Shown: positions 54,123 to 64,000 of the stretch, one piece after another
Layout of the letters: every line of letters starts with the position of its first letter
Position numbering within the stretch: position 1 is the stretch's first letter
Assembly (NCBI GenBank): GCA_910588615.1
Contig: CAJUOI010000003.1
Coordinates: 15,057 to 79,056, forward strand
Direction: 5' to 3'
From: an uncultured Christensenellaceae bacterium
Lineage (GTDB): Bacteria > Bacillota > Clostridia > Christensenellales > Borkfalkiaceae
Length of the DNA: 64,000 nucleotides
Notes under the pieces: model-generated
What the model was told of the DNA's origin: nothing
The model's database searches: none
The model's input: the letters and a program-made list of their open reading frames with translations, nothing else
Program-made: the position numbers and the translations under genes

Positions 54123-55031
54123 TTATCGGTGAAGCACCTCGTCAAGCGTCGGGATAGACGAGGACGCGCCGATACGGGAAACGGTGATCGCCGAACACCT
54201 TGCCGCAAATTCCAACGACGACGCAATGCTATACCCGCTTGCTTTGCGCACCGCAAGCGCACCGATAAACGTATCGCCCGCCGACGTCGTATCGACCGCT
54301 TCGACCTTTTGGGCAGGGCAATAAACGCAATCTCCATTGAGATAATAACACCCCTTCGCGCCGAGCGTGATCAGCGTTTCACGTACGCCGTGGTCTGCAA
54401 AAAATGAGTATACGCGCTTTGCCGCATCCTCGCCGTCGACAGAAATTTCCGCAATCAGCTCGCACTCCGTTTCGTTTAATACGATTAGGTCGGTATATTT
54501 TAAAAACTCTTCTCCGATCTTTACGGCGGGCGATGGGTTCAAAATCGTATACATGCCCCGTTCCTTCGCCTTTTTTAATCCCTGCCGTGTGGCGTCCAAC
54601 GTAATTTCGAGCTGTGTAATAAACAAGTCGCCCTCTTCGCCATAAGAATCCAGATAGTCCAAAAAATCCTCATATTCTACCCGTTCGTTAGCGCCCAATT
54701 CCACCACGAGCACATTGTCGTTTTTGCTTTTGTCCAATAAAATCATGCACACGCCGCTGTTGCAATCCTTAACGGAGACCGCACTTACTTCGACGCCATA
54801 CGACGACAACGAGCGCAACAAATCTTTTCCGAACGAATCGTTACCCACCGCGCCGATAAACGCCACCCGTTCGCCGCCGAGCTTTTTACAGGCGACCGCC
54901 TGATTTGCGCCCTTTCCGCCCTGATTGATGATAAAACGACTACCTTTTAACGACTCTCCCGTCATCGGCATTCGATCCGCCGTCATAACGAGATCGGTAT
55001 TGATGCTTCCGAGTATAAATATTTTTTTCAT
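54123..55031 (-). CDS. rbsK: Ribokinase (PfkB family)
   Basis: ILGSINTDLV, GGKGANQAVA and DTTSAGDTFIGAL motifs. Confidence 0.85.
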   Translation of the reverse strand: MKKIFILGSINTDLVMTADRMPMTGESLKGSRFIINQGGKGANQAVACKKLGGERVAFIGAVGNDSFGKDLLRSLSSYGVEVSAVSVKDCNSGVCMILLDKSKNDNVLVVELGANERVEYEDFLDYLDSYGEEGDLFITQLEITLDATRQGLKKAKERGMYTILNPSPAVKIGEEFLKYTDLIVLNETECELIAEISVDGEDAAKRVYSFFADHGVRETLITLGAKGCYYLNGDCVYCPAQKVEAVDTTSAGDTFIGALAVRKASGYSIASSLEFAARCSAITVSRIGASSSIPTLDEVLHR

Positions 55032-55056
55032 GCTTTTCCCTCACATTCCGCACAGT

Positions 55057-55740
55057 TTATTTTATAACGGCGCGCAGCGCTTCAAGCCCCTGTTCCAAAT
55101 CGGTTGACGGAGCAAAAATACTGCTCGTGCCGCCGACGAAGATATCCGCACCGTTCTCCCGCATGATCTTTGCATTCGGATAACTGACGCAACCGTCCAC
55201 CTCGATCATCACGTTAGCGTTCCCGTTGCCATCAAGATAGTTGCGGGCGTCGCGGATTTTTTCGAGCGTCTGGCTCACCACTTTTTGTCCCGCGAATCCG
55301 GGATTTACCGTCATCAACAAAAGAAAATCAATATCGCATGCCAGATAATCGAGTACGTTCAGCGGCGTAGCAGGATTGAGCGCCAGCCCTGCTTTAACGC
55401 CTTTGTCCTTGATTTTTCCGATTGCCCTTTGCACGTGCGGCGTACTCTCGTAATGCACGGACATAAGATCTCCTTCTCTCAAATCAAACCAATCGATTTT
55501 CATTTCGGGATCGGTGATCATCAAATGATAATCGAACGGGATTTCCGTAATTTTACGGATCTGCCTGATAAGACTCTCGCCCAACGTGATATTCGGCACA
55601 AAGTGGCCGTCCATAATATCAAGGTGCAGGTATTCGACACCGCACCGTTCAAACACTTCGAGCGTTTGTTTCAATTCGGTAAAATCGGCGCACATCATCG
55701 AAGGCGAAATTTTTCCTTTTATCATATGCCCTCCCATCAC
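55057..55740 (-). CDS. rpe: Ribulose-phosphate / allulose-6-phosphate 3-epimerase family protein
   Basis: ISPSMMCADF, LHLDIMDGHFVPNIT, VNPGFAGQ and VDG motifs. The start is uncertain (GTG 55740, ATG 55737 or ATG 55725). Confidence 0.85.
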   Translation of the reverse strand: MMGGHMIKGKISPSMMCADFTELKQTLEVFERCGVEYLHLDIMDGHFVPNITLGESLIRQIRKITEIPFDYHLMITDPEMKIDWFDLREGDLMSVHYESTPHVQRAIGKIKDKGVKAGLALNPATPLNVLDYLACDIDFLLLMTVNPGFAGQKVVSQTLEKIRDARNYLDGNGNANVMIEVDGCVSYPNAKIMRENGADIFVGGTSSIFAPSTDLEQGLEALRAVIK

Positions 55741-56204
55741 TTATATAAAGGTCCGAGATCGCGGCAAGCCATAAAATCGGTGCCCTGACGGCTTTCGTTC
55801 CCATACGCAGACCACACGTGAGGGCGAAAAATCCGCTCGAAAGCAACGTTATGCAAACTGACGGGAATGCGCAGCATACTTGCAAACGCCAATACGTCCG
55901 CGCCGATATGTCCGTAGGTAAGACAACTGTGGTTGGCTCCCCAATTCGCCATAACGTCGTACACGCTCTCGCACCCCGCCACGCCCGTATTCGGAACGAA
56001 GAATGTAGAAGGCCACGCCCTATCGGTGCGTTTCTCGATCGCATCGCTTACCTCGCGCGGCAAATCGACGGAATACCCCTCTACAACCTGCAACACGGGA
56101 CCCAATTTGTTGACGCGGTTCAACCGCATCATCGTCATGGGCATTTCCGCACGCGTAACGAAGTGTCCGCTGAATCCACCCGCCTTGAAGTATTCGAGAT
56201 TGGC
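55737..56204 (-). pseudogene. fucI: 3' fragment (C-terminal ~155 aa) of L-fucose isomerase
   Basis: ANLEYFKAGGFSGHF..VYDVMANWGANHSCLTYGHIGADVLAFASMLRIPVSLHNV..ACRDLGPLYK matches the C-terminal domain of the ~590-aa FucI (E. coli sequence recalled from memory). Homology stops at about 56204, where element sequence begins. Confidence 0.8.
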
Positions 56205-56758
56205 AGGATTCTTCCAATTTCGGGATAACTCAATCCCGCCATTCTGCATTCAAGCGCAATTCGCATATTATCGGTCAGATTTAGGCTCTCTACGATTTTA
56301 TCGCATTGCTCATAGTCTTGTTGGACTTCTTCCTTCATTTCGACTGTCGGTTCGCTTTTCCGCGTTAATTCTTCGAGGCTGATATTGCGGTAACGGTCGC
56401 GTGATTTCCTGTTTATCAGTTTGTTCATTCTTCTAATGCAAGCCATCTGTACGGTGATCTTCTTGCCTTTCTTGGTATAGCCTATTATTTCGTTTAAATG
56501 CTTTCCGTAGTGCTCGCAGAGGCACAACGCGCATTCCTGTACCAAATCGTACCCGTCGCTTAATGCGCGGGTTACGTCGTTTTTGTTCAAGATGTCCTTA
56601 TACAAATCAATGTACATCTTTTGCATTTGCGTTCCCATGTAACCTATGAGATAGCGCGTTTCCGTAAACGCTATGATTTCCGCCATAGCGAATACGTTGT
56701 CGGGTGTGATTTCCTCTTTCATTACTTCGTAATTGAGGAATGTGCTTTTGTTGTTCAT
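56205..56758 (-). pseudogene. Sigma-70-region-4-like regulator, copy A, 3'-truncated at the fucI junction
   Basis: About 60-65% identical by eye to copy B (60407..61060) up to ..LSYPEIGRIL. It then reads through into out-of-frame fucI sequence (track ORF 56135..56758). Confidence 0.75.
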
Positions 56759-56768
56759 TTTGGATTTC

Positions 56769-57020
56769 CTCCGATTGTTTTATTTGCCTTTTCGGCAACC
56801 ACAACGGAAGCACGAAGAAAAGTTAAAAAACATATTCTTCGAGAACGGCAACACGGAAGTCAACGACCAAGAAAAAAGTTTTGCATAAAAATAACGCCTA
56901 ACGGTTTAGTTCCGTTAAGCGTTATTTTCTTTTATTCAAGTCGTGCGCAAAAGTTTTTTCCGTTTACTTCCGCTTTTCTTTGTGCTACCGCCTATACCCG
57001 AAAAGGCAAATCAATCGGAG
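56769..57020. repeat. Imperfect inverted repeats (56769-56795 and 56998-57020) bracketing 202 bp with a central hairpin, upstream of sigma-like copy A
   Basis: The left arm is CTCCGATTGTTTTATTTGCCTTTTCGG. The reverse complement of the right arm is CTCCGATTGATTTGCCTTTTCGG. The proximal arm contains the SD of copy A. Confidence 0.7.
56888..56928. terminator. Long hairpin with flanking A-run and T-run (bidirectional terminator-like) at the centre of the IR-bracketed segment
   Basis: 17-position stem with one mismatch (AAAATAACGCCTAACGG / CCGTTAAGCGTTATTTT) and a 7-nt loop. Confidence 0.6.
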
Positions 57021-57054
57021 TGTCCATAAAAATGTGTTACAGTCTTGATACAAG

Positions 57055-57175
57055 CGCGGCGGCTTCGCCGCCGCGGACCAGCACACGCCGCAACGCAACT
57101 GAACTCACTTACAAAATAACGAAAATCGGGCGACGGAGCGGGCGTTCGCCGCTAAACCGCTTGCGAACCGCCCGC
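57055..57175. other. Paired GC-rich hairpins H1 (57055-57075) and H2 (57138-57175), element copy 1
   Basis: H1 has a 9-bp stem CGCGGCGGC/GCCGCCGCG and loop TTC. H2 has a ~12-bp stem GCGGGCGTTCGC/GCGAACCGCCCGC (one bulge) and loop CGCTAAACCGCTT. Their homologues are at 62586-62686. Confidence 0.7.
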
Positions 57176-57269
57176 GCTTACCGTCGCGCGGTATTCCGAT
57201 TTTGATCCGTATTTTGACATGCGTTTTTTCAGTTTTATCGCGGCGTCCCCTGCCCGTTCTTCTATCGAC

Positions 57270-58316
57270 TTATTGTTTCTTATAATATTTCGTATTACGC
57301 GCCGAACCGATTTTAACGATCTTGCCTTCTTTTACCATCATTCCCAACACTGCTTCAACCGTTGTAGGCGATACGTCTACCAACAAATTACATATTTCTT
57401 TTTTTGAAATCGGTAGAAACGCATTTAATACTGTTTCCTCAATTCGTTTTGTCTTTGTAATTTTACCGCTGTTTAACGTCAAAAAACGTTTATCCAGCTC
57501 TTTATAGCAACAATACAACGTGAAAACAAAATTCTCCATAAACGGTAAATAATTATTTCTATTTTCATGCCATCCGACAGACGATTGTTTTAATGCTTCG
57601 TAATAATTCCCTTTCGTCCGATTAATCTGTTCCTCAAAAGAGATATATTTGGAAATATCAAATCCGCTCTTATAAAGCAATAACAGCGATAATAACCGCG
57701 ACATCCTTCCGTTTCCGTCGCGGAACGGGTGTACGCATAAAAAGTCCAAAACAAAGCAGGGTATCAAAAGCAGTTGGTTAATCCCCGAATCGTCTCTCGC
57801 TTCCGTATATGCCAATAACAGTTGCTCCATCGCAGAAGGCGTTTCTTTTGCCGATACGGGAACCCAACGCACACGGCTCGTCCCGTCCGAATAAGACTCG
57901 CGTATGATATTATCTTCCCGCTTATAAACTCCTCCCCGCATATCTGTATGAGAAAGCAGAACTTCATGTAAATGCAAAACCGTTCTTTCATTCAGCGGAA
58001 TACTTTCATAGTTTTCATGGATCAATCTTAAAGCATCGCGATATCCTGCTATTTCCTGTTCGTTATGATTCAACGGTGCCGAACTGTTTTTAACGATCTC
58101 CTCGATTCTCTGATCGGTCGTTATAATTCCTTCGATTGCATTACTTCCCTTTACCGACTGAACGATTGCCAACTCTTGCAATTTCGTAAAAATTGCAGGG
58201 AAATCCGTTTTTTTCTTTTCCTCCTCACTACGCAAAGCATAAATTCCGTTTGTTACCGATAAAAAGGATGTCGGCACAGTCATTGCTTTCAAAAACTGAT
58301 AATCATATTTCCTCAT
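57270..58316 (-). CDS. Fic-family protein (class II, internal inhibitory helix) with a C-terminal winged-helix domain
   Basis: Fic motif HPFRDGNGRMSRLL and inhibitory motif SNAIEG ((S/T)xxxE(G/N)). ATG 58316 follows GAGGTG and lies downstream of the consensus promoter. Confidence 0.85.
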   Translation of the reverse strand: MRKYDYQFLKAMTVPTSFLSVTNGIYALRSEEEKKKTDFPAIFTKLQELAIVQSVKGSNAIEGIITTDQRIEEIVKNSSAPLNHNEQEIAGYRDALRLIHENYESIPLNERTVLHLHEVLLSHTDMRGGVYKREDNIIRESYSDGTSRVRWVPVSAKETPSAMEQLLLAYTEARDDSGINQLLLIPCFVLDFLCVHPFRDGNGRMSRLLSLLLLYKSGFDISKYISFEEQINRTKGNYYEALKQSSVGWHENRNNYLPFMENFVFTLYCCYKELDKRFLTLNSGKITKTKRIEETVLNAFLPISKKEICNLLVDVSPTTVEAVLGMMVKEGKIVKIGSARNTKYYKKQ

Positions 58317-58339
58317 TCTACACCTCAGTATCTGCACAT

Positions 58340-58368
58340 ATTATAGGATTTTTTATGCAAATTGTCAA
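58340..58368 (-). promoter_or_regulatory. Sigma-70-type promoter of the Fic gene
   Basis: The minus strand reads TTGACA, a 17-nt spacer, then TATAAT. It is flanked by repeated TATGCAAATT motifs at about 58354-58363 and 58404-58413. Confidence 0.55.
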
Positions 58369-58481
58369 CAAAAAATCCACTCGAATCTGCATATTATTAA
58401 AAAAATATATGCAAATTCATTATCGTTATTTCAAGATAGTCAACTATTTGAAATAAGGAATAAACAGCAGTGATTTTTATT

Positions 58482-59957
58482 TCAATTACTTTTCCGCAGT
58501 TGCTTAATAACCTCTTGGCTTACCTTGCCCATATACTCACCCTCGTCCCAGCAGGCGAAATCGTCAAAGAGCAACAGCTTTTTATCCTCCAATCCGACCG
58601 TCGTTACAACGTCGTCGTCCATCACGTCCGAAATGAAGTATTGCGGCAAGCCTTTACTGTATACGATTTTCTCTCCCGTCTTTTCGAGGTATTTCATAAG
58701 ATAGGCAACCGACCTTCCAAGCATGGTATTATCTTCTATCTTCTCAAAATCCGAACGCCCGAATCGTTCGTTGAAATAGGTATTCTGCACCGTGATCTGT
58801 CTGCGGCGACTTTTGAAGCTGTAATCGCTTTTTTCAACCAACAGCCCCGGCATCGTTCCCTCGGGGATATAGAGCAGCCCGTGAAAATGCAAACTCTGTT
58901 TTTCGGGAGAACGTTCCCATACGTCCACATACTTCCAGCCTTTCCTCGAAGCAAAATTTGCAAGCGTCTTTTTCAAGCCCTTCTTAAAACTTTCCTCGGT
59001 ATGAAGTTGTCCGTTGTAGGTAAACGTTACAAAATGGGTAAACGTCTGTAAATTTACTTTCCGCGTCAAACGGATACGTCTGCAAATGAGATTGCGCCGC
59101 TTGCGTTCGATATTGCCGTCTACATAATTCTTTACCGTCGTTTCAGTCTTAAAGAACGGGCGTAGAGCCGCGATAATCTTTTCCCGCCGTTCGCCTTTCT
59201 TCAAATGGAGATATTCTTGATATAATTCGTTGAACAGTTCTTTCTTTGTCATATAATAATTTTTATTGAAAGCGTGCATTGAGCCAAAAAACTGTATTTC
59301 AGATTTGCTATTGGAACCTCTTCCCCTCTTTAAATTAATCAATTCAAAAGTTGTTATCATATCAGCTATTTGAAACAGTCTATATTGCGCAGGGCTAACA
59401 TTACGTCTAAATTCGACGTTGTTTTCTGTAAAAATTGATGCCATTATTTGTGTCAACTGCGTTTGTCCGTTATCGTAATAAATTATTATTTTATCATATT
59501 CAGACAGCAATTCACTTTTGCTGTCTATAAATTCTCTAATTTGCTTTGAAAGTAATGAAATAATCTTAAATTGATTAAAGTCTTCTCTTTTCTCTACGAC
59601 AAAAGTTATATATTTAAATTCCACTTTACTTGCGAAATTCATAAAGCAATTTAAAATACTTTTTCTTTCGTCTATCGTCATTAACTCATATACTTCTTCT
59701 TTTCGAATCAACGGTCCCGTATGTAAACAATGTTCCGAATAACTTTTCATCGATAGACTGTCAGATAAGTATTGTAATAATTCGTTAATACTATGTTTTT
59801 GATCATGAAAAAGCATAGTCACCAAATAATATGGTGCAATATTATTATACTTTCCAAAGTCCCCAGACTCATCAATAAAAATACTCAAATTCTTTCTCAT
59901 ACGCAAAAAAAAAGTGGCGAGGAATACCCCCGCCGCGGTGGACCTCGGGAATTTCAA
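58482..59957 (-). CDS. In-frame fusion of a DUF3800-like N-terminal domain and a phiX-A-like HUH (YxxxY) rolling-circle Rep domain (Rep copy 1)
   Basis: N-terminal part (about 59253-59900, very AT-rich): LSIFIDESGDFG. C-terminal part (58482-59252): FVTFTY (motif 1), LHFHGLLY (HUH), AYLMKYLEK (YxxxY). There is no stop between the parts. The start is TTG 59957 or ATG 59900. Confidence 0.7.
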   Translation of the reverse strand: MKFPRSTAAGVFLATFFLRMRKNLSIFIDESGDFGKYNNIAPYYLVTMLFHDQKHSINELLQYLSDSLSMKSYSEHCLHTGPLIRKEEVYELMTIDERKSILNCFMNFASKVEFKYITFVVEKREDFNQFKIISLLSKQIREFIDSKSELLSEYDKIIIYYDNGQTQLTQIMASIFTENNVEFRRNVSPAQYRLFQIADMITTFELINLKRGRGSNSKSEIQFFGSMHAFNKNYYMTKKELFNELYQEYLHLKKGERREKIIAALRPFFKTETTVKNYVDGNIERKRRNLICRRIRLTRKVNLQTFTHFVTFTYNGQLHTEESFKKGLKKTLANFASRKGWKYVDVWERSPEKQSLHFHGLLYIPEGTMPGLLVEKSDYSFKSRRRQITVQNTYFNERFGRSDFEKIEDNTMLGRSVAYLMKYLEKTGEKIVYSKGLPQYFISDVMDDDVVTTVGLEDKKLLLFDDFACWDEGEYMGKVSQEVIKQLRKSN

Positions 59958-59986
59958 CCCAGCCCAAATTTATTTTTCTTGATAAT

Positions 59987-60015
59987 ATTATATGCTATTG
60001 AGGGATAAAAGTCAA
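59987..60015 (-). promoter_or_regulatory. Sigma-70-type promoter of the DUF3800-Rep gene
   Basis: The minus strand reads TTGACT, a 17-nt spacer, then TATAAT. Confidence 0.55.
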
Positions 60016-60103
60016 CCCCTTTTTTGCAAATTTTTATTATCATCAACATTATTATAACATATTTTTACTTGTTCCATACCGTTAACTGACAAATTCTATA
60101 TAT

Positions 60104-60398
60104 TCCTCCGAGATTTTTTGCCGTTTCGTCGGGCTTATCGTAGCATAGTCCTTCTCCGATGTCAACGGGCAAAAAATTGCTTTGAATTTGAAACCGAACT
60201 TAATATTTTCAGCACCGCATTTTCCGTTCGGTGTTTTTTCTTTTAACGCAATTTTTTGGTTGTGGGGCATCTCCTCCCGTCATTATTTCACTTTTATTGC
60301 CACCGTTGACATCAAAAATTAGACGAAACACAACATCCTCCGAATGAAGTCCTATGCCTCGTTCGCCCTGCCGAACGGCAAATCAAAAATCTCGGAGG
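60104..60398. repeat. Imperfect inverted repeats (60104-60127 and 60372-60398) bracketing 244 bp with a central terminator-like hairpin, upstream of sigma-like copy B
   Basis: The distal arm is CCTCCGAGATTTTTTGCCGTTTCG. The proximal arm is CGAACGGCAAATCAAAAATCTCGGAGG and contains the SD. The whole segment is homologous and collinear with the copy A leader. Confidence 0.7.
60211..60240 (+). terminator. Weak terminator-like hairpin inside the copy B leader
   Basis: CACCG..CGGTG stem followed by TTTTTT on the plus strand. Confidence 0.4.
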
Positions 60399-60406
60399 TA
60401 TCCAAA

Positions 60407-61060
60407 ATGAAAAGAAGGACAAACAAACATGAGAGCAGAATAAGGTACAAGAACTTTGATTACAATATTCTGAAAGATCCTATCTCGCCCAATAACGTAT
60501 TCGCTATGTCCGAAATCATAGCGTTTATGGAAACGCGCTATCTCATTAGTTATGCAGGAACGCGTATGCAGCAGTTAAATACCAATCTGTTCAAAGACAT
60601 CAAGAACAGAGACGACGTAAGCCGTTCGTTAAGCGATGGTTACGATTTGGTGCAGGAATGTGCATTGTATCTCTGCGAATACTACGGGCAGCATTTAGAT
60701 GATGTTATAGGCTATACAAAGAAGAAAAAAAAGATAACGGTAAGAATCGCCTGTATCAGAAAGATGATGAAACTGATTAACCGCAAATCGAGAGACAGTT
60801 ACCGCCTTATAAGCCTTGATGCTTTAACGCCCATAAGCGAACCTACGATCGAAATAAGAGAAGAAATCGAGCAGGATTATACAAAATGCGATAAGATTGT
60901 AGAGAGCCTGAATTTATCCGATAATATGCGAGTTGCGTTGGAATGTAGAATGTCGGGGTTAAGCTATCCCGAGATAGGAAGAATCCTTGAAAGAGCGCAA
61001 GCGACCATTTACGAATACTTTATCAAAATGCGTAAGCGGTACACGGCGATTTACGGTTAA
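60407..61060 (+). CDS. Sigma-70-region-4-like transcription regulator, copy B (full length)
   Basis: 217 aa from the ATG after CTCGGAGG. C-terminal LSDNMRVALECRMSGLSYPEIGRILERAQATIYEYF is a region-4-type HTH. Paralogue of copy A. Confidence 0.7.
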   Translation: MKRRTNKHESRIRYKNFDYNILKDPISPNNVFAMSEIIAFMETRYLISYAGTRMQQLNTNLFKDIKNRDDVSRSLSDGYDLVQECALYLCEYYGQHLDDVIGYTKKKKKITVRIACIRKMMKLINRKSRDSYRLISLDALTPISEPTIEIREEIEQDYTKCDKIVESLNLSDNMRVALECRMSGLSYPEIGRILERAQATIYEYFIKMRKRYTAIYG

Positions 61061-61080
61061 TGCGCAATATAGAGTCGAAA

Positions 61081-61160
61081 CTATACCCCCACTGTGAAAC
61101 GGTGCGTTATTCTTACTGTTTCATAGATTTTAACCGCAATTCTATCCCCCACTGTTAAAC
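61081..61160 (+). repeat. Two 19-20-bp direct repeats spaced exactly 60 bp apart
   Basis: CTATACCCCCACTGTGAAAC (61081-61100) and TCTATCCCCCACTGTTAAAC (61141-61160). Confidence 0.7.
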
Positions 61161-61302
61161 CACTGTTTTAAGTCGAGAAACAGCGCTGTAACCGCCGCGA
61201 ATTACTTTATCGGAATAACACTCATCCTAACGCAATAAACGTTTCTAATCGAAATAGAAATGGCATTTGAAATTCGCAATGGTTAGCGCTAAAAATGCTT
61301 TC

Positions 61303-61330
61303 AAGAGTGCGAACGACCACGCTCTTTTTT
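61303..61330 (+). terminator. Terminator of sigma-like copy B
   Basis: 7-bp stem AAGAGTG/CGCTCTT-type (one G-U pair), followed by TTTTTT. Confidence 0.5.
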
Positions 61331-61823
61331 AAGCCGGTACAGTATAGTTATAAGCGTACTTGTTTAACCGCTCGCCTTTCAAATTCAGAATATAACCATC
61401 CTCCACCTTGCAGCCCCATTCGGGATTATGAAGCGGTAATTCTTCTAAAATATCCTCATCCGTTACATCTGAACTTTCTATTACTTCCAAATCCTCTATT
61501 TTAATAGAAGCGCTCAAATCATCCGCAAGCGTTTTAGGATCTTCTCTATAAAACAAAAACGTTCCGCGACGAATTTCAGCGGCTAAAATATGACCTTCGT
61601 CCCCCTTGTGAATTCCGTATTGTTCATATTCATCCGTAAGAACGCAAACCCGATCTAAATACTCGCGCTTTCCTGCTAATTCCACTGCAATGCTCACTCG
61701 TTGCCCGTATCTATTCAACACGCCCAGTTCATATTTCCCTTTCAAAAATTCTTTTTTGGCAGATTCTGCAATGATATTGTAAACTTCCTCGGCATCGTCA
61801 ATAATATATCCCATACTTTTCAT
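61329..61823 (-). CDS. Hypothetical protein; the C-terminal half resembles DUF4926-type small beta-barrel proteins by eye
   Basis: 164-aa ORF whose start overlaps the upstream stop (TAATG). VCVLTDEYEQYGIHKGDEGHIL has a DUF4926-like pattern, with low certainty. Confidence 0.45.
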   Translation of the reverse strand: MKSMGYIIDDAEEVYNIIAESAKKEFLKGKYELGVLNRYGQRVSIAVELAGKREYLDRVCVLTDEYEQYGIHKGDEGHILAAEIRRGTFLFYREDPKTLADDLSASIKIEDLEVIESSDVTDEDILEELPLHNPEWGCKVEDGYILNLKGERLNKYAYNYTVPA

Positions 61824-62140
61824 TAAGTCAACCTTTTTGACGAATAGTAATCCTTGATTTTTCCCATTGAAAATTCAAGCGTAACTTCATTCAATTCGGT
61901 AGGAATTTGTGTGCATTTACAAAACGGATGTTGTTCTTCATCAGGTTTATTATTATTTTTGAATATTGTTTTATTGATTGCAACGCAAATTTCGCAAGTA
62001 TGCGTCATCGGATCCGCCACCGCAATTCCTCCGCACACCTCTATATCCAACGGACTATCATTCTGCCGCTGCCGTCAACCGTCTCCTTCTTTCAAAAACG
62101 TAGCCACTTTTTTCTTAAAAAACCCGTCAAATAAACTCAT
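61823..62140 (-). pseudogene. Fragment resembling the C-terminal zinc-ribbon of phage MuF/SPP1-gp7 proteins, interrupted by an in-frame TGA
   Basis: THTCEIC...HPFCKC resembles the MuF C-terminal C..C...HPNCRC. ATG 62140 has a strong AAGGAG RBS, then 21 codons, a TGA at 62075-62077, and then the same frame continues into track ORF 61823..62050. Confidence 0.4.
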
Positions 62141-62219
62141 TAAAATTCTCCTTTTGTTTTACTCTAATTATAACATGCAATTTTTGGGTAAAGGGGGTAT
62201 CATGACAAAATTTTTTGCA

Positions 62220-62515
62220 TCACAATAAAAAATTCTGCAAATACAGCAACAGCCGCTTGTTGAATATCTGAACGTACTTCTCCGTAACGCCCCATTCTGC
62301 TGCTAACGCCTTTTGCGTTAGACCGCTTTCGTACAGCCCGCGATAAACGCGCCGAAGGGGTTTGGACGCACTCTCAATCGCACGGAAATAATTCTCCACA
62401 AACCGCTTGATATCGGCGGGAACTAAAATTTCCACGCCTTTTCCGCCGATTTAAGTGCAAAATGATATTCTCGGATAATCTTCAATTCCGCTCTGATTTC
62501 CTGTAAATTTTTCAT
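62220..62515 (-). pseudogene. Small sigma-region-4/DUF1492-like HTH gene split by a frameshift
   Basis: ATG 62515 (GGGAGG RBS) encodes MKNLQEIRAELKIIREYHFALKSAEKAWKF and stops at 62423. The HTH part (LTQKALAAEWGVTEKYV) continues in another frame from 62435, and the two frames overlap at an AAAATTTT tract. Confidence 0.45.
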
Positions 62516-62585
62516 ACTATTTTCCTCCCAAATTTCCCCAAAAGTTGGGGTATTGACACTTGCGCGTGCGCTTGGTTTATACGAG

Positions 62586-62686
62586 CGGGTGCGCGCTCCG
62601 CGCGCACCCGATACAAGGTGTCGTCAACCGTGCAGACCACCGCGCGGGGCGGGGGTTGCGCTGAACCGCTTGCAACCGCCCGCCCC
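62586..62686. other. Paired GC-rich hairpins H1 (62586-62610) and H2 (62646-62686), element copy 2
   Basis: H1 has a 10-bp stem CGGGTGCGCG/CGCGCACCCG. H2 has a ~14-bp stem GGGGCGGGGGTTGC/GCAACCGCCCGCCCC (one bulge) and loop GCTGAACCGCTT, nearly identical to the copy 1 H2 loop although the stem sequences differ. Confidence 0.7.
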
Positions 62687-62730
62687 GTTCTCGCGGTGGT
62701 CGTTTCTTGCGTGTTCTTGTTGCCGTTCCT

Positions 62731-63708
62731 CTAATATATGTATCGGGGTTCATACCCGCGCGGGGGTGGTGTTGCGTAGTGTTGTATATCTCTTTCCCAA
62801 TCTATCACGTCGTCGAATAGAACGTACTTTAATACGAAATTTCGGATTTTGCTTGCAATGTCGTCATTGTCTATTGTGGTGTATAGTTCGGCGGGAATGC
62901 CTCGACTATACGTTATCTTTTCGCCCGTCTTTTCTATGTATTTGAGTAGATAGGAAACGGCGTTTCCGTGTTTGAGTTCTACGGGGCTGATTTCCTCGAA
63001 GTCGTTCCGCCCGAACCGTTCCGCGAAAAAGTCATTTTCATGCGTGGTCTGCATTTTGTGTTGTTTCGTGCTATAATCTTGCTTTTCCGTTATCGTGCCT
63101 ATCATTTCATTTTCGGGTACGTACACGAGCGCATGAAAATGCAAACGCCCCGTTTCGGGCGCGCGCTCGAATACGCCCATATACCGCCATTTATGGCGCG
63201 TGTGCAGGTTGGAAAGACATTTACGGAGCTTTGCGCGGAACTCTGTTTCCGTGTGTTTTTCGTCCGAATATGTTATCGTTACAAAGTGCGTCCAACGGTT
63301 CATATTTGCTTTGTTCCGAAAGCGTTTCTTTCGGTGATGCAGGTTGTTTAACTTACGCTTTATATTCTCGTCTATAAAGGCATTTACGGCGGTTTCGTCC
63401 TCGAATAGGTGTATTAAGTTATCTTGCAAAAATGCGCGCGTTTCGGCTTTGCCTTTGCCCTCTGTAAGTGTTAAGGCGTATAACCCGTCAAAGAGTTCGC
63501 GGGCGGTATCTTCTTTCCGTTTGCGGGGGCGTTGGGGCTTGTGTTTCGTCCTCGTAAGCGGAACGGCGACAAAATGCCCGCCGTCGTTGTACACTCGGCA
63601 AAACTGACCCTTGCGCCGTGTCGGGCGGGGGTCGTCGAAGAATGTCGGTTGATAGTAACGGTCAAACGGGTTTTTGCCGTAGCCGTTTGCAATGGCTGTT
63701 GCGGTCAT
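62731..63708 (-). CDS. phiX-A-like HUH (YxxxY) rolling-circle Rep protein (Rep copy 2)
   Basis: 325 aa with HFVTITY (motif 1), LHFHALVY (HUH) and VSYLLKYIEK (YxxxY). Collinear with residues ~236-491 of the 58482..59957 ORF. Confidence 0.75.
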   Translation of the reverse strand: MTATAIANGYGKNPFDRYYQPTFFDDPRPTRRKGQFCRVYNDGGHFVAVPLTRTKHKPQRPRKRKEDTARELFDGLYALTLTEGKGKAETRAFLQDNLIHLFEDETAVNAFIDENIKRKLNNLHHRKKRFRNKANMNRWTHFVTITYSDEKHTETEFRAKLRKCLSNLHTRHKWRYMGVFERAPETGRLHFHALVYVPENEMIGTITEKQDYSTKQHKMQTTHENDFFAERFGRNDFEEISPVELKHGNAVSYLLKYIEKTGEKITYSRGIPAELYTTIDNDDIASKIRNFVLKYVLFDDVIDWERDIQHYATPPPRGYEPRYIY

Positions 63709-63767
63709 TTCTGCTTTTCCTTTTCGGGGTTTCGGTTTTGTTCTTGCCTTTGTGGTAGTCGAGGACG

Positions 63768-63990
63768 GGGGGAAACAAATTCACCCGAGCGCGCTGCTTA
63801 CTCTTTGTTTCCCCCTCTTGACCCCCTTCGTCTATTATGGGAAGTGTTGCGGGGTGTCTGGGTTCTCAGCTTATATTTTGCCCCCGTCGCAAAGGAGGAA
63901 AACGGCGGGGGCGGGTGTGGGCTTATACTGCGTATTCGTAGTAACCTACTTCGTATAGCCAATTTTTCAAAGTGTCTGCGTTACTACGAA
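63768..63990. other. Cluster of strong hairpins upstream of Rep copy 2
   Basis: Perfect 12-bp IR GGGGGAAACAAA..24 nt..TTTGTTTCCCCC (about 63769-63816). GCCCCCGTCG/CGGCGGGGGC with 9 of 10 paired (about 63881-63918). Perfect 11-bp IR TTCGTAGTAAC..TTACTACGAA-type (about 63937-63990). Confidence 0.6.
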
Positions 63991-64000
63991 ATTTTTTGAA

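Follow-up and report, generated by a model that had tools for sequence, protein, structure and literature searches.

Organization of the island

The window analysed here (a 64,000-nucleotide stretch of contig CAJUOI010000003.1, assembly GCA_910588615.1, from an uncultured Christensenellaceae bacterium) ends inside a mosaic island containing genes for replication initiators of the HUH type (Rep) and for sigma-factor-like proteins. The island is about 11.7 kb long and extends from 56.2 kb through the window end to about 67.9 kb; positions past 64000 are given as window-equivalents, following locus L018, which equals the window over 13,657 nt and then continues for 7 kb past its end. Along the minus strand, the island begins with the left half of a resident remnant (a 187-aa helix-turn-helix (HTH) open reading frame (ORF) and the hairpin H2''), followed by the attachment (att) site attL, an intact element, E2 (integrase to Rep2, then the hairpins H2 and H1), and attR. 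After these come the right half of the remnant (a 71-aa HTH protein, a MuF fragment and a 164-aa ORF), the inverted sigmaB gene with its leader, a decayed element, copy 1 or E1 (the DUF3800-XI motif and a DUF3800::truncated Rep1 gene, Fic, H2' and H1'), an att core, and finally a leader with sigmaA. All the ORFs of 55737-63708 lie on the minus strand, with the sole exception of sigmaB (ORF listing and profile searches), and the host genes PIG-L, nagB and GH20 are found after the 187-aa ORF.

We consider it quite probable that this island is the product of tandem accretion of small integrative elements, followed by decay. A sequence-only reading of the window had proposed either that related elements were inserted into one another or that one-ended rolling-circle events produced the layout; the former agrees with our results (the intact element is flanked by hybrid att sites with swapped arms), while the latter is not supported by them, given that the junctions lie at a recombinase-type core beside H1 and not at H2.

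Four assemblies made independently, with different samples and pipelines, contain the locus, and ERZ28569575 and ERZ28568754 are among the samples that yielded it: three ENA metagenome assemblies are 100% identical to it (exact look-up of the Rep2 and sigmaB proteins), and the NCBI metagenome-assembled genome (MAG) GCA_948487155.1 shows 3 mismatches in 14,979 nt.

The intact element E2 and its att sites

E2 is about 4.35 kb long and runs past the window edge to about 66,900. Its features within the window are the following:

63926-64000, minus strand: 3' end of sigC, the extracytoplasmic function (ECF)-type sigma gene of E2, cut by the window edge (continued in L018)
62731-63708, minus strand: Rep2, the complete 325-aa HUH/two-tyrosine (Y2) initiator of E2 (Pfam PF23343, 47.1 bits)
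62636-62700, minus strand: H2 hairpin of E2, loop AAGCGGTTCAGC, candidate Rep2 origin (DNA fold z = -5.4)
62562-62625, minus strand: attR of E2, downstream of Rep2, composed of P arm GACGACACCTTGTAT, H1, core GCTCGT and B' arm AACCAAGCGCACGCGC

Past 64000, the region upstream of Rep2 holds sigC, ORFs of 126, 56/74 and 69 aa, and a divergent HTH_3 repressor. The sigC product (217 aa) matches TIGR02937 with 50.9 bits (cutoff 42.9) over model positions 4-163 of 165, which comprise regions 2 and 4, and also matches phage sigma-factor PHROGs (E=3e-11). The integrase of E2, a 305-aa tyrosine recombinase that resembles Xer and integron integrases most closely, lies 1.9 kb beyond 64000 and adjoins attL; the 187-aa ORF follows it on the same contig. 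The statement of the sequence-only reading that no integrase accompanies the Reps is thus correct within the window but not for the contig, E2 seemingly lacking an integrase because the window edge cuts the element.

The genomic contexts of Rep2 homologues repeat one small unit (integrase, HTH_3 on the opposite strand, small ORFs, sigma, Rep), and E2 is collinear, gene for gene, with a sister element in L008. The same reading had suggested searching relatives for intact copies as the way to find ends and gene order, and this did define, from L007 and L008, a canonical unit and its att sites. The canonical element measures about 4.4-4.7 kb and is formed by an Xer-like integrase, a divergent HTH_3, three small ORFs, a sigma-70/ECF-type gene and a PF23343 Rep, with H2 downstream of Rep and then H1 amid 13-16-nt inverted arms, beside a GCTYGT core.

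In attL, upstream of the integrase, the order is B arm GCGCGTGCGCTTGGTT, hairpin, CTTGT and P' arm ATACAAGGTGTCGTC. The arms of attL and attR are exact inverted partners (15 and 16 nt) which have been exchanged between the two sites, from which it follows that E2 recombined with a resident site built in the same way, whose B and B' arms (GCGCGTGCGCTTGGTT / AACCAAGCGCACGCGC) it now splits. The attP of the excised E2 is predicted to be GACGACACCTTGTAT-C-GGGTGCGCGCGGAGCGCGCACCC-GCTCGT-AAAATACAAGGTGTCGTC, with H1 between the P arm and the core, and the repaired resident site would read GCGCGTGCGCTTGGTT-CGGCGAGCGTAGCGAGCCGA-CTTGT-ATAAACCAAGCGCACGCGC.

The sister element (Rep P0013, 64% identical to Rep2) is present in integrated form in L007 and in a circular-junction arrangement in L008, where the segment downstream of Rep is joined to the segment upstream of the integrase gene; aligned with the L007 copy, L008 proves to be exactly the same unit in circularly permuted form, the two segments overlapping by 6 nt and the unit measuring 4,723 bp. 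Its three sites can therefore be compared directly: attP is …CATCACCTTGACA-C-GGGCGCGCggagCGCGCCC-GCTCGT|TTAATGTCAAGGTGATG…, attL is …GGCGTGAGCTTGT|TTAATGTCAAGGTGATG… and attR is …CGCGCCC-GCTCGT|CTTGACAAGCGCGCGGCTACGCCGCGCGGACAAGCTCACGCC. From this triple we conclude that the crossover takes place at the GCTYGT core, between H1 and the right-hand inverted arm, and that the integration target is likewise a palindrome around a GC hairpin.

Some additional observations were made on the sister element and its relatives. The contigs L011 (3,492 nt) and L012 (3,340 nt) differ from L008 (4,749 nt) by deletions of 1.25 and 1.4 kb, which remove the integrase and the repressor, and run from palindrome to palindrome as the full unit does; they may represent circles or tandems without an integrase that Rep maintains. 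The palindrome in question is a perfect one of 34 nt (GTAATACTTTTCCGACGTCGGAAAAGTATTAC, L007:2954-2987), which separates the 72-aa ORF of the sister element from its 78-aa ORF; the assemblies break at it, at both ends of L008, L011 and L012, and it may function as an operator or terminator, or else as a second origin. The intergenic region between sigC and Rep (L018:13366-13579, equivalent to 63709-63922) is conserved relative to L008:1385-1685, next to a 64% identical Rep; it contains a GC hairpin after sigC and then a conserved block of about 120 nt, including GGGGTCAAGAGGGG…GAGTAAGCAGCGCGC, which may be a Rep leader or promoter.

Rep proteins and the H2 hairpin

The decayed element E1 follows the same grammar (Rep1, Fic, H2', H1' and CTTGT core), with these features:

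59919-59966, minus strand: DUF3800-XI RNA motif (Rfam RF02975), at the start of the DUF3800::Rep1 ORF
59253-59957, minus strand: DUF3800 domain, fused in frame to Rep1 (Pfam DUF3800, 29.5 bits, cutoff 21)
58482-59252, minus strand: Rep1 core, comprising the catalytic region with HUH and Y-x-x-K-Y but not the N-terminal YNDGGH domain typical of the family
57270-58337, minus strand: Fic/DOC family protein, cargo or addiction module (Pfam Fic, E=5e-14)
57138-57176, minus strand: H2' hairpin, loop AAGCGGTTTAGC, candidate Rep origin of copy 1
57041-57075, minus strand: att' of copy 1, composed of H1' (CGCGGCGGC-gaa-GCCGCCGCG), core CTTGT and the arm opening the sigmaA module

DUF3800::Rep1 is one continuous 491-aa ORF (58482-59957, minus strand), of which Rep constitutes the C-terminal 255 residues; residues 237-471 share 44% aa identity with Rep2 (E=1e-62). 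Both proteins score above the 27.8-bit cutoff of Pfam PF23343 (REP_ORF2-G2P, 'Replication-associated protein ORF2/G2P'), Rep1 with 40.4 and Rep2 with 47.1 bits, so that the two Rep paralogues reported from the sequence are confirmed, copy 1 with the qualification that it is a fusion to DUF3800 devoid of the conserved N-terminal domain; the idea of a wholly uncharacterised Rep family has to be abandoned, as PF23343 already exists. The closest relative found for Rep1 (L019, 57% identity) is a Rep of normal build, 337 aa long, with an integrase after it. The match to RF02975 is full length (31.6 bits, below the gathering score of 37.8; E=4e-4), and this sub-threshold match suggests that the DUF3800 gene may have been brought in as a cassette, along with the motif that precedes it.

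Across 23 aligned family sequences FVTFTY, HFH and Y253-x-x-K256-Y257-x-x-K260 do not vary, and motifs I, II and III of the Y2 HUH class are all kept in the Reps. The two-tyrosine type assigned earlier is therefore correct, although membership in IS91 or in the phiX/Microviridae type is not borne out by the Pfam scan: PF23343 is the sole Rep family above threshold (Rep2 also matches RNR_N at chance level), no IS91 transposase family matches either Rep, and Phage_GPA reaches 23.3 bits on Rep2, below its cutoff of 31.4. A Microviridae/phiX174-type or P2-type replication module was rejected on this sub-threshold score, together with the fact that the capsid-related match is just the 75-aa MuF fragment. 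PDB sequence searches with Rep2 and with the Rep profile returned chance-level matches, and the AlphaFold 2 (AF2) model of Rep2 has a mean confidence (pLDDT) of 74.

The H2 loop AAGCGGTTYAGC is found at 57151-57162 and 62660-62671, each copy followed by a short GC-rich H1, and a third H2/H1 pair lies outside the window (66968-66979), which extends the two homologous hairpin pairs recognised before. In many members of the family H2 lies about 130 nt downstream of Rep, with a stem that varies and a loop, AAGCG(A/G)TTTAGCG, that is invariant; in the canonical element the loop is AAGCGRTTTAGCG, and in the sister class an analogous hairpin has the loop AAGTGCATTGC…. In a 17-sequence alignment, 10 of whose members were chosen by a stem-complementarity filter, compensatory changes affect 14 of the 15 stem pairs and 84% of the cells are paired (62% in shuffles); the covariation score was not attained in any of 500 shuffles. 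The nick site of an HUH initiator is expected to lie beside the HUH gene, in a hairpin whose loop stays constant while its stem changes, and we somewhat favour the view, drawn from these patterns, that Rep acts at H2.

Copy 1 and the resident remnant

In copy 1, H1' occupies 57055-57075 and the core CTTGT 57050-57054, with the sigmaA leader beginning directly after the core; the right flank ACTGTRACACATTTTTATGG also precedes a sigma module in the unrelated L026. The arrangement of hairpin and core in att' is that of the sister attP/attL/attR triple. E1 is a decayed element, in which Rep1 is damaged and its YNDGGH domain has been replaced by the DUF3800 cassette. A Fic gene stands beside Rep also in L019, L112, L159, L162 and L176.

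The resident site is preceded by its own H2-type hairpin (H2'', the third loop copy) and by H1'', and neither a Rep nor an integrase is present among the island ORFs of the remnant. Its right half contains:

62220-62435, minus strand: 71-aa HTH protein (TIGR02937 region-4 match, 18 bits)
61823-62050, minus strand: 75-aa MuF/SPP1-gp7-like head-morphogenesis fragment (PHROG 1657, E=2e-5; TIGR01641 weak)
61329-61823, minus strand: 164-aa ORF, function unassigned, without Pfam, NCBIfam or PHROG match

The C-terminus of the 71-aa protein resembles that of the 187-aa ORF on the other side of E2 (37% identity over 38 aa), an HTH being common to the two. Pfam and PHROG searches agree with the earlier calls of Fic, DUF3800 and a MuF-like fragment.

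Sigma modules and their leaders

The two remaining sigma genes, each with its leader, are located as follows:

60407-61060, plus strand: sigmaB, 217 aa from the ATG at 60407 (mechanical ORF start 60344), inverted with respect to all other modules
60105-60406, plus strand: sigmaB leader, extended hairpin of about 300 nt over the GGAGG Shine-Dalgarno (SD) sequence (minimum free energy (MFE) -98.8 kcal/mol, z = -6.0)
56759-57035, minus strand: sigmaA leader, extended hairpin of about 280 nt (MFE -107.8 kcal/mol, z = -8.7)
56205-56758, minus strand (the ORF reads into fucI DNA to 56135): sigmaA, a sigma-region-4/LuxR-type HTH protein without its last ~23 codons

SigmaA and sigmaB are paralogues, as previously proposed: they share 71% aa identity and form an inverted repeat with 76% nt identity over 529 nt (56205-56733 versus 60459-60987). 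Homologues of sigmaB are mostly 208 or 217 aa long. Neither protein reaches the 42.9-bit cutoff of TIGR02937 (sigmaA matches it weakly, with 20.5 bits), both having just an HTH of the region-4/LuxR type, their family profile weakly matches LuxR and sigma HTH structures, the PDB sequence search with sigmaB gave chance-level matches, and its AF2 model (pLDDT 41.5) is unusable. In the serine-recombinase subfamily (L161, L170, L173 and L191), genes of this type lie directly upstream of Rep and co-oriented with it, and they are the counterparts of sigC in E2.

The leaders had been described as homologous. Their sequences align over just ~45 nt around the ribosome-binding site, while what they do have in common is a fold which would sequester the SD sequence (z = -8.7 and -6.0). 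In the sigmaA leader the outer stem takes up the SD sequence together with the region just upstream of it, and in the sigmaB leader the arms, 17 nt each, are at 60102-60118 and 60385-60401. The ten leaders of this type that we examined (the window pair, L020:8671-9006, L026:8671-9006, L159, L161, L170, L173, L175 and L191) are all 200-320 nt long and predicted to form a long extended hairpin, with an outer stem pairing the SD region with a segment 150-320 nt upstream; most contain the complementary blocks GTCAACGG/CCGTTGAC and TTTGCCTTTTCGG/CCGAAAAGGCAAA, and the sigmaA leader is nearly identical in the unrelated loci L020 and L026. RNAalifold yielded no consensus for the ten leaders, the MAFFT alignment being too gappy, and a consensus with few compensatory pairs for a five-leader subset. 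No sigma leader matched Rfam, and a 29-nt conserved leader pattern had zero matches in IMG/VR. They may represent a cis-regulatory RNA that has not been described, or else a palindrome acting at the DNA level.

Stand-alone leader and sigma modules, with no Rep nearby, were also seen at the edge of defence-type islands, in L020:7969-9627 (GCA_948790825.1; neighbours AAA_15/AAA_21, ResIII and Eco57I genes) and in L026:4619-9654 (neighbour an AIPR gene). Beside the L020 module there is a 69-aa DegV fragment, a second host gene truncated next to such a module.

The break in fucI

At its left end the island meets the host gene fucI:

56200-56210, minus strand: sigmaA/fucI deletion junction (…GGAAGAATCCT|GCCAATCTCGAATAC…), placed by comparing it both with sigmaB and with the unbroken fucI genes of L029 and L031
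55737-56210, minus strand (ORF to 56249): fucI 3' remnant, last ~158 of ~590 codons (NCBIfam and Pfam)

The remnant matches positions 434-590 of 591 of NCBIfam PRK10991 and Pfam Fucose_iso_C, so that, as had been noticed, the backbone gene cluster breaks off inside fucI, with the C-terminal part alone left. Relatives with 77-88% aa identity have an intact fucI followed by rpe. In tblastx comparisons with the intact fucI of L029 and L031 the homology stops at about 56210, and the homology of sigmaA to sigmaB ends at exactly 56205; the ATCCT microhomology at the junction is also present in ancestral-type fucI (for example L031, …TTATCCTGCAAAT…). Since both sigmaA and fucI are truncated at this microhomology, an illegitimate deletion after the island had formed, rather than an element end, would account for the junction. 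The comparison thus points to a secondary microhomology-mediated deletion, which would have taken the 3' end of sigmaA, everything beyond it and the 5' ~73% of fucI. The earlier view of an element replacing fucI, and likewise that of an island integrated into fucI, were rejected on this basis, the junction cutting the sigma ORF at the microhomology.

Two further differences were observed in the closest relative, L029 (10197-12446): an additional 749-aa gene lies between rpe and the PfkB kinase gene (absent at window positions 55031-55057), and its fucI is preceded by ABC-transporter-like genes, whose window paralogues are distant, at ~20-21 kb.

A widespread family with interchangeable recombinases

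Homologues of Rep2 form 1,886 clusters at 90% identity, all unnamed or 'hypothetical', and all those listed carry PF23343; sigma homologues form ~1,200 clusters at the same identity. A profile scan found at least 407 loci in public metagenomes and 4 among 2.9 million IMG/VR contigs, a few family members lying at or near the ends of IMG/VR viral contigs; single-protein scans of IMG/VR gave no match with sigmaB and one locus with Rep1. A tblastn search with Rep2 retrieved no plasmid and, from 50,697 phage genomes, a single unverified record. This sole INPHARED match, L196 (MT835493.1, 21790-40500, UNVERIFIED 'Bacteriophage sp.'), is a large-type element with dnd-like genes downstream (PAPS_reduct, DUF4007, a 1,202-aa ORF and a class-V aminotransferase), and it is probably bacterial chromosome rather than phage.

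In order to survey the recombinases, the first large ORF after Rep was classified in 38 distinct loci with Pfam, which was used because local iterative hidden Markov models had picked up few of the neighbouring genes when the loci were distant:

rve DDE enzyme: 9 of 38 loci
large serine recombinase: 5 of 38 loci
tyrosine recombinase: 4 of 38 loci
IS110: 1 of 38 loci
HTH matches only, like the probable DDE enzyme of L127: ~7 of 38 loci

From these gene neighbourhoods, the integration modules appear to be interchangeable across the family. In the literature searched there is no description of this Rep-sigma element family, nor of PF23343 / REP_ORF2-G2P, in line with the earlier statement that the gene combination is not a described architecture.

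Larger elements are common in the family (L146:294-6859, L127:1519-6718, L134, L143, L186, L001:1311-3608 and L196). Upstream of Rep, and co-directional with it, they have a ~750-aa protein and predicted-transmembrane (TM) proteins of 360, 210 and 470-750 aa, besides a very basic protein of 125-170 aa. In the ~750-aa protein there are 4-5 TM segments at the N-terminus and a P-loop-like motif, GTMGKKKT; its family comprises more than 2,300 clusters (all hypothetical), and it received no annotation from Pfam, PHROGs, NCBIfam, a PDB profile search or a profile search of 5.8 billion proteins. For the upstream proteins as a group there was no significant Pfam or PHROG match, and an NCBIfam subset gave one marginal match (E=0.026). 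They may be a transfer or morphogenesis apparatus of a new kind.

Formation of the island and alternative explanations

We propose that the island arose as small integrative rolling-circle elements inserted themselves one after the other, in a site-specific manner, at one another's att sites, with decay afterwards. In such an element, the repressor would hold the operon silent and the element's own sigma factor would direct its transcription; upon induction, the integrase would excise a circle and Rep would nick the H2 loop, leading to rolling-circle replication, and possibly transfer, of the circle. Tandem accretion and decayed cis-mobilizable remnants have been described for integrative mobilizable elements (IMEs) (PMC5704250). 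E2 has one of the traits that define an IME, namely its own integration and excision module with att sites (integrase, attL/attR), and the resident arms split by E2, together with H2''/H1'' kept without Rep or integrase, correspond to accretion involving a cis-mobilizable element (CIME).

Several results weigh against this proposal. No excised form or empty site of E2 was found in 24 long contigs, which all contain the same array, and the circular-looking Logan contigs could be tandem repeats instead. The arms of the resident att differ from those of E2, which leaves recognition by the E2 integrase unexplained, and the cores of the partner sites are identical over just ~5-6 nt. The resident remnant is read as a decayed relative, with its halves flanking E2, on the strength of the H2''/H1'' module, and no recombination sites were identified for the inversion of sigmaB or for the sigmaB/DUF3800 boundary. 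We infer the biochemical role of Rep (replication or relaxase) and nicking at H2 from sequence, the H2 alignment includes filtered members, and a Foldseek search of the PDB with the Rep2 model gave faint, non-significant HUH Rep domains (best E 0.06 or worse).

Among the alternatives, an assembly chimera, in which the assembler would have joined repeats of related elements from different genomes, can practically be set aside: the source is a metagenome-assembled contig with diverged repeats and a GC content of 30-37% over 59.0-60.5 kb (and dips near 35% elsewhere in the island), but the independent assemblies, an NCBI MAG among them, are concordant, and repeats with just 70-76% nt identity are too diverged for mis-joins in k-mer graphs. 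Very improbable, too, is rolling-circle transposition of the IS91/ISCR/Helitron type, with Rep as a Y2 transposase whose one-ended copying and missed termination would have produced both the mosaic and the fucI break. The two-tyrosine HUH signature is indeed common to IS91 and phiX A, the att cores contain CTTG, which resembles the IS91 target tetranucleotide, and cargo genes (Fic, DUF3800) adjoin the Reps. Against this mechanism, PF23343 alone is matched above threshold by both Reps, and no IS91 transposase family; in the junctions, inverted arms have been exchanged reciprocally at a short core, which is the pattern of conservative site-specific recombination; at least 19 of the 38 loci have a recombinase after Rep; and the fucI junction lies inside the sigma ORF, at a microhomology and not at an element end. 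The crossover, moreover, is located beside H1, ~60 nt from H2, and Rep-mediated insertion was rejected because it does not fall at H2.

Improbable, though less so, is that the elements are phage satellites or defective prophage remnants, induced by a helper and packaged as concatemers, with the sigma factor hijacking late transcription and the island being a satellite graveyard. The layout does resemble a lysogeny module (integrase with a divergent cI-like HTH_3 repressor), sigC matches phage sigma factors, a MuF-like head-protein fragment lies within the island, PF23343 is named after inovirus/plectrovirus replication proteins, and the few members near viral contig ends would fit. Set against these points are the scarcity of the family in the viral collections compared with the metagenomes, and the failure to find terminase, capsid-remodelling or Zot-like genes among the island ORFs and the scanned proteins of the larger relatives, or to identify a helper. 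Measured against phage-inducible chromosomal islands (PICIs), integrase, repressor and replication module are present, and packaging or redirecting genes were not found with Pfam and PHROGs. An Inoviridae/Plectroviridae prophage was rejected, there being no Zot or morphogenesis match in nine island ORFs (Pfam, NCBIfam) and in the E2 proteins (NCBIfam, PHROGs); the name of the Rep family is the sole link of the elements to these phages.

Returning to site-specific accretion, the way in which such elements spread is a separate question. Rep and H2 could function as relaxase and origin of transfer (oriT), and neither a coupling protein nor a helper for mobilisation was identified. Mobilisation through the pore of a helper has been proposed for streptococcal IMEs with initiator-like relaxases (PMC5357655, PMC5704250). 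The elements described here could spread in this manner, by packaging, or not spread horizontally at all, and any particular transfer route is, taken singly, unlikely.

Relation to known systems and significance

The closest parallels are the streptococcal IMEs with Rel_PHA00330, Rel_PF01719 or MobT (Coluzzi et al. 2017, PMC5357655; Guédon et al. 2017, PMC5704250), which are likewise small and chromosomal and combine a recombinase with an HUH-type initiator. Like the Rep-sigma elements, these swap integration modules among tyrosine, serine and DDE enzymes, often occur in tandem with decayed relatives (CIME accretion) and have functions predicted from sequence. The Rep-sigma elements differ in their hosts (uncultured gut Clostridia), in a Rep of PF23343 (which may or may not correspond to CDD PHA00330), in being without TcpA or a recognisable coupling protein, in having an ECF-type sigma gene immediately upstream of Rep, and in an att built on a hairpin directly after the putative origin hairpin. 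Tn916 carries a sigma-like gene, orf7. As in the case of Rep-sigma elements, the own HUH protein of Tn916 and ICEBs1 has been proposed to serve both circle replication and transfer initiation (PMC5704250); these two are, however, 18-20 kb long and self-transmissible, equipped with a complete type IV secretion module and with a relaxase of the Rep_trans (MobT) type, in contrast with ~4.5 kb and no transfer genes in Rep-sigma elements.

The Rep family name is also common to CTXphi/RS1 and the TLCphi satellite (PMC6744903), inovirus G2P and plectrovirus ORF2. These filamentous-phage-type replicons are, like the Rep-sigma elements, small circles with Xer-type tyrosine recombination at hairpin or palindrome sites and frequent tandem arrays, but Rep-sigma elements encode their own integrase instead of using host XerCD, no coat or Zot-like gene was found in them, and their integration as folded single-stranded DNA (ssDNA) is mere conjecture. 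With IS91/ISCR, phiX174 A and P2 A the Reps have in common the HUH and Y-x-x-x-Y signature and the weak Phage_GPA resemblance, the differences being that no IS91-type domain matches, that this resemblance stays below the cutoff, that the borders are att sites and that a capsid gene is absent.

What is already known comprises the accretion and decay process (textbook for IMEs) and the Pfam family of the Rep; what appears to be undescribed is the association of a sigma gene, a PF23343 Rep, a conserved origin hairpin, a hairpin-centred att and interchangeable recombinases. As a tentative and rather doubtful extension, these traits would jointly point to a new and widespread family of minimal integrative rolling-circle replicons of gut Clostridia, with integration through ssDNA hairpins and parasitism on the apparatus of the larger relatives. 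The defining traits of this family would be its own ECF-type sigma, an origin hairpin with invariant loop and an att hairpin adjoining the origin. By analogy with CTXphi and integron attC, the att hairpin could be recombined as folded ssDNA, made by Rep, by the element-encoded Xer-like integrase, and the membrane P-loop and surface proteins of the larger relatives might be a new transfer or virion apparatus parasitised by the small elements.

The locus itself is a fixed, partly dead island, largely a graveyard, through which the host lost fucI. For mobile-element annotation the family reveals a blind spot, as it is abundant and yet near-absent from the phage and plasmid references and from the IME literature searched. 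It can be detected by a simple rule: a sigma-like gene, a PF23343 Rep, a hairpin with the loop AAGCGRTTTAGCG, a GC hairpin with a GCTYGT core, and a recombinase of any type. Other mosaic islands are explained in the same way, often with defence or toxin cargo (Fic, DUF3800, GmrSD, AAA_15/21 or Dnd), and the origin hairpin adjoining the att hairpin makes these elements a compact system for the coupling of rolling-circle replication with site-specific integration.

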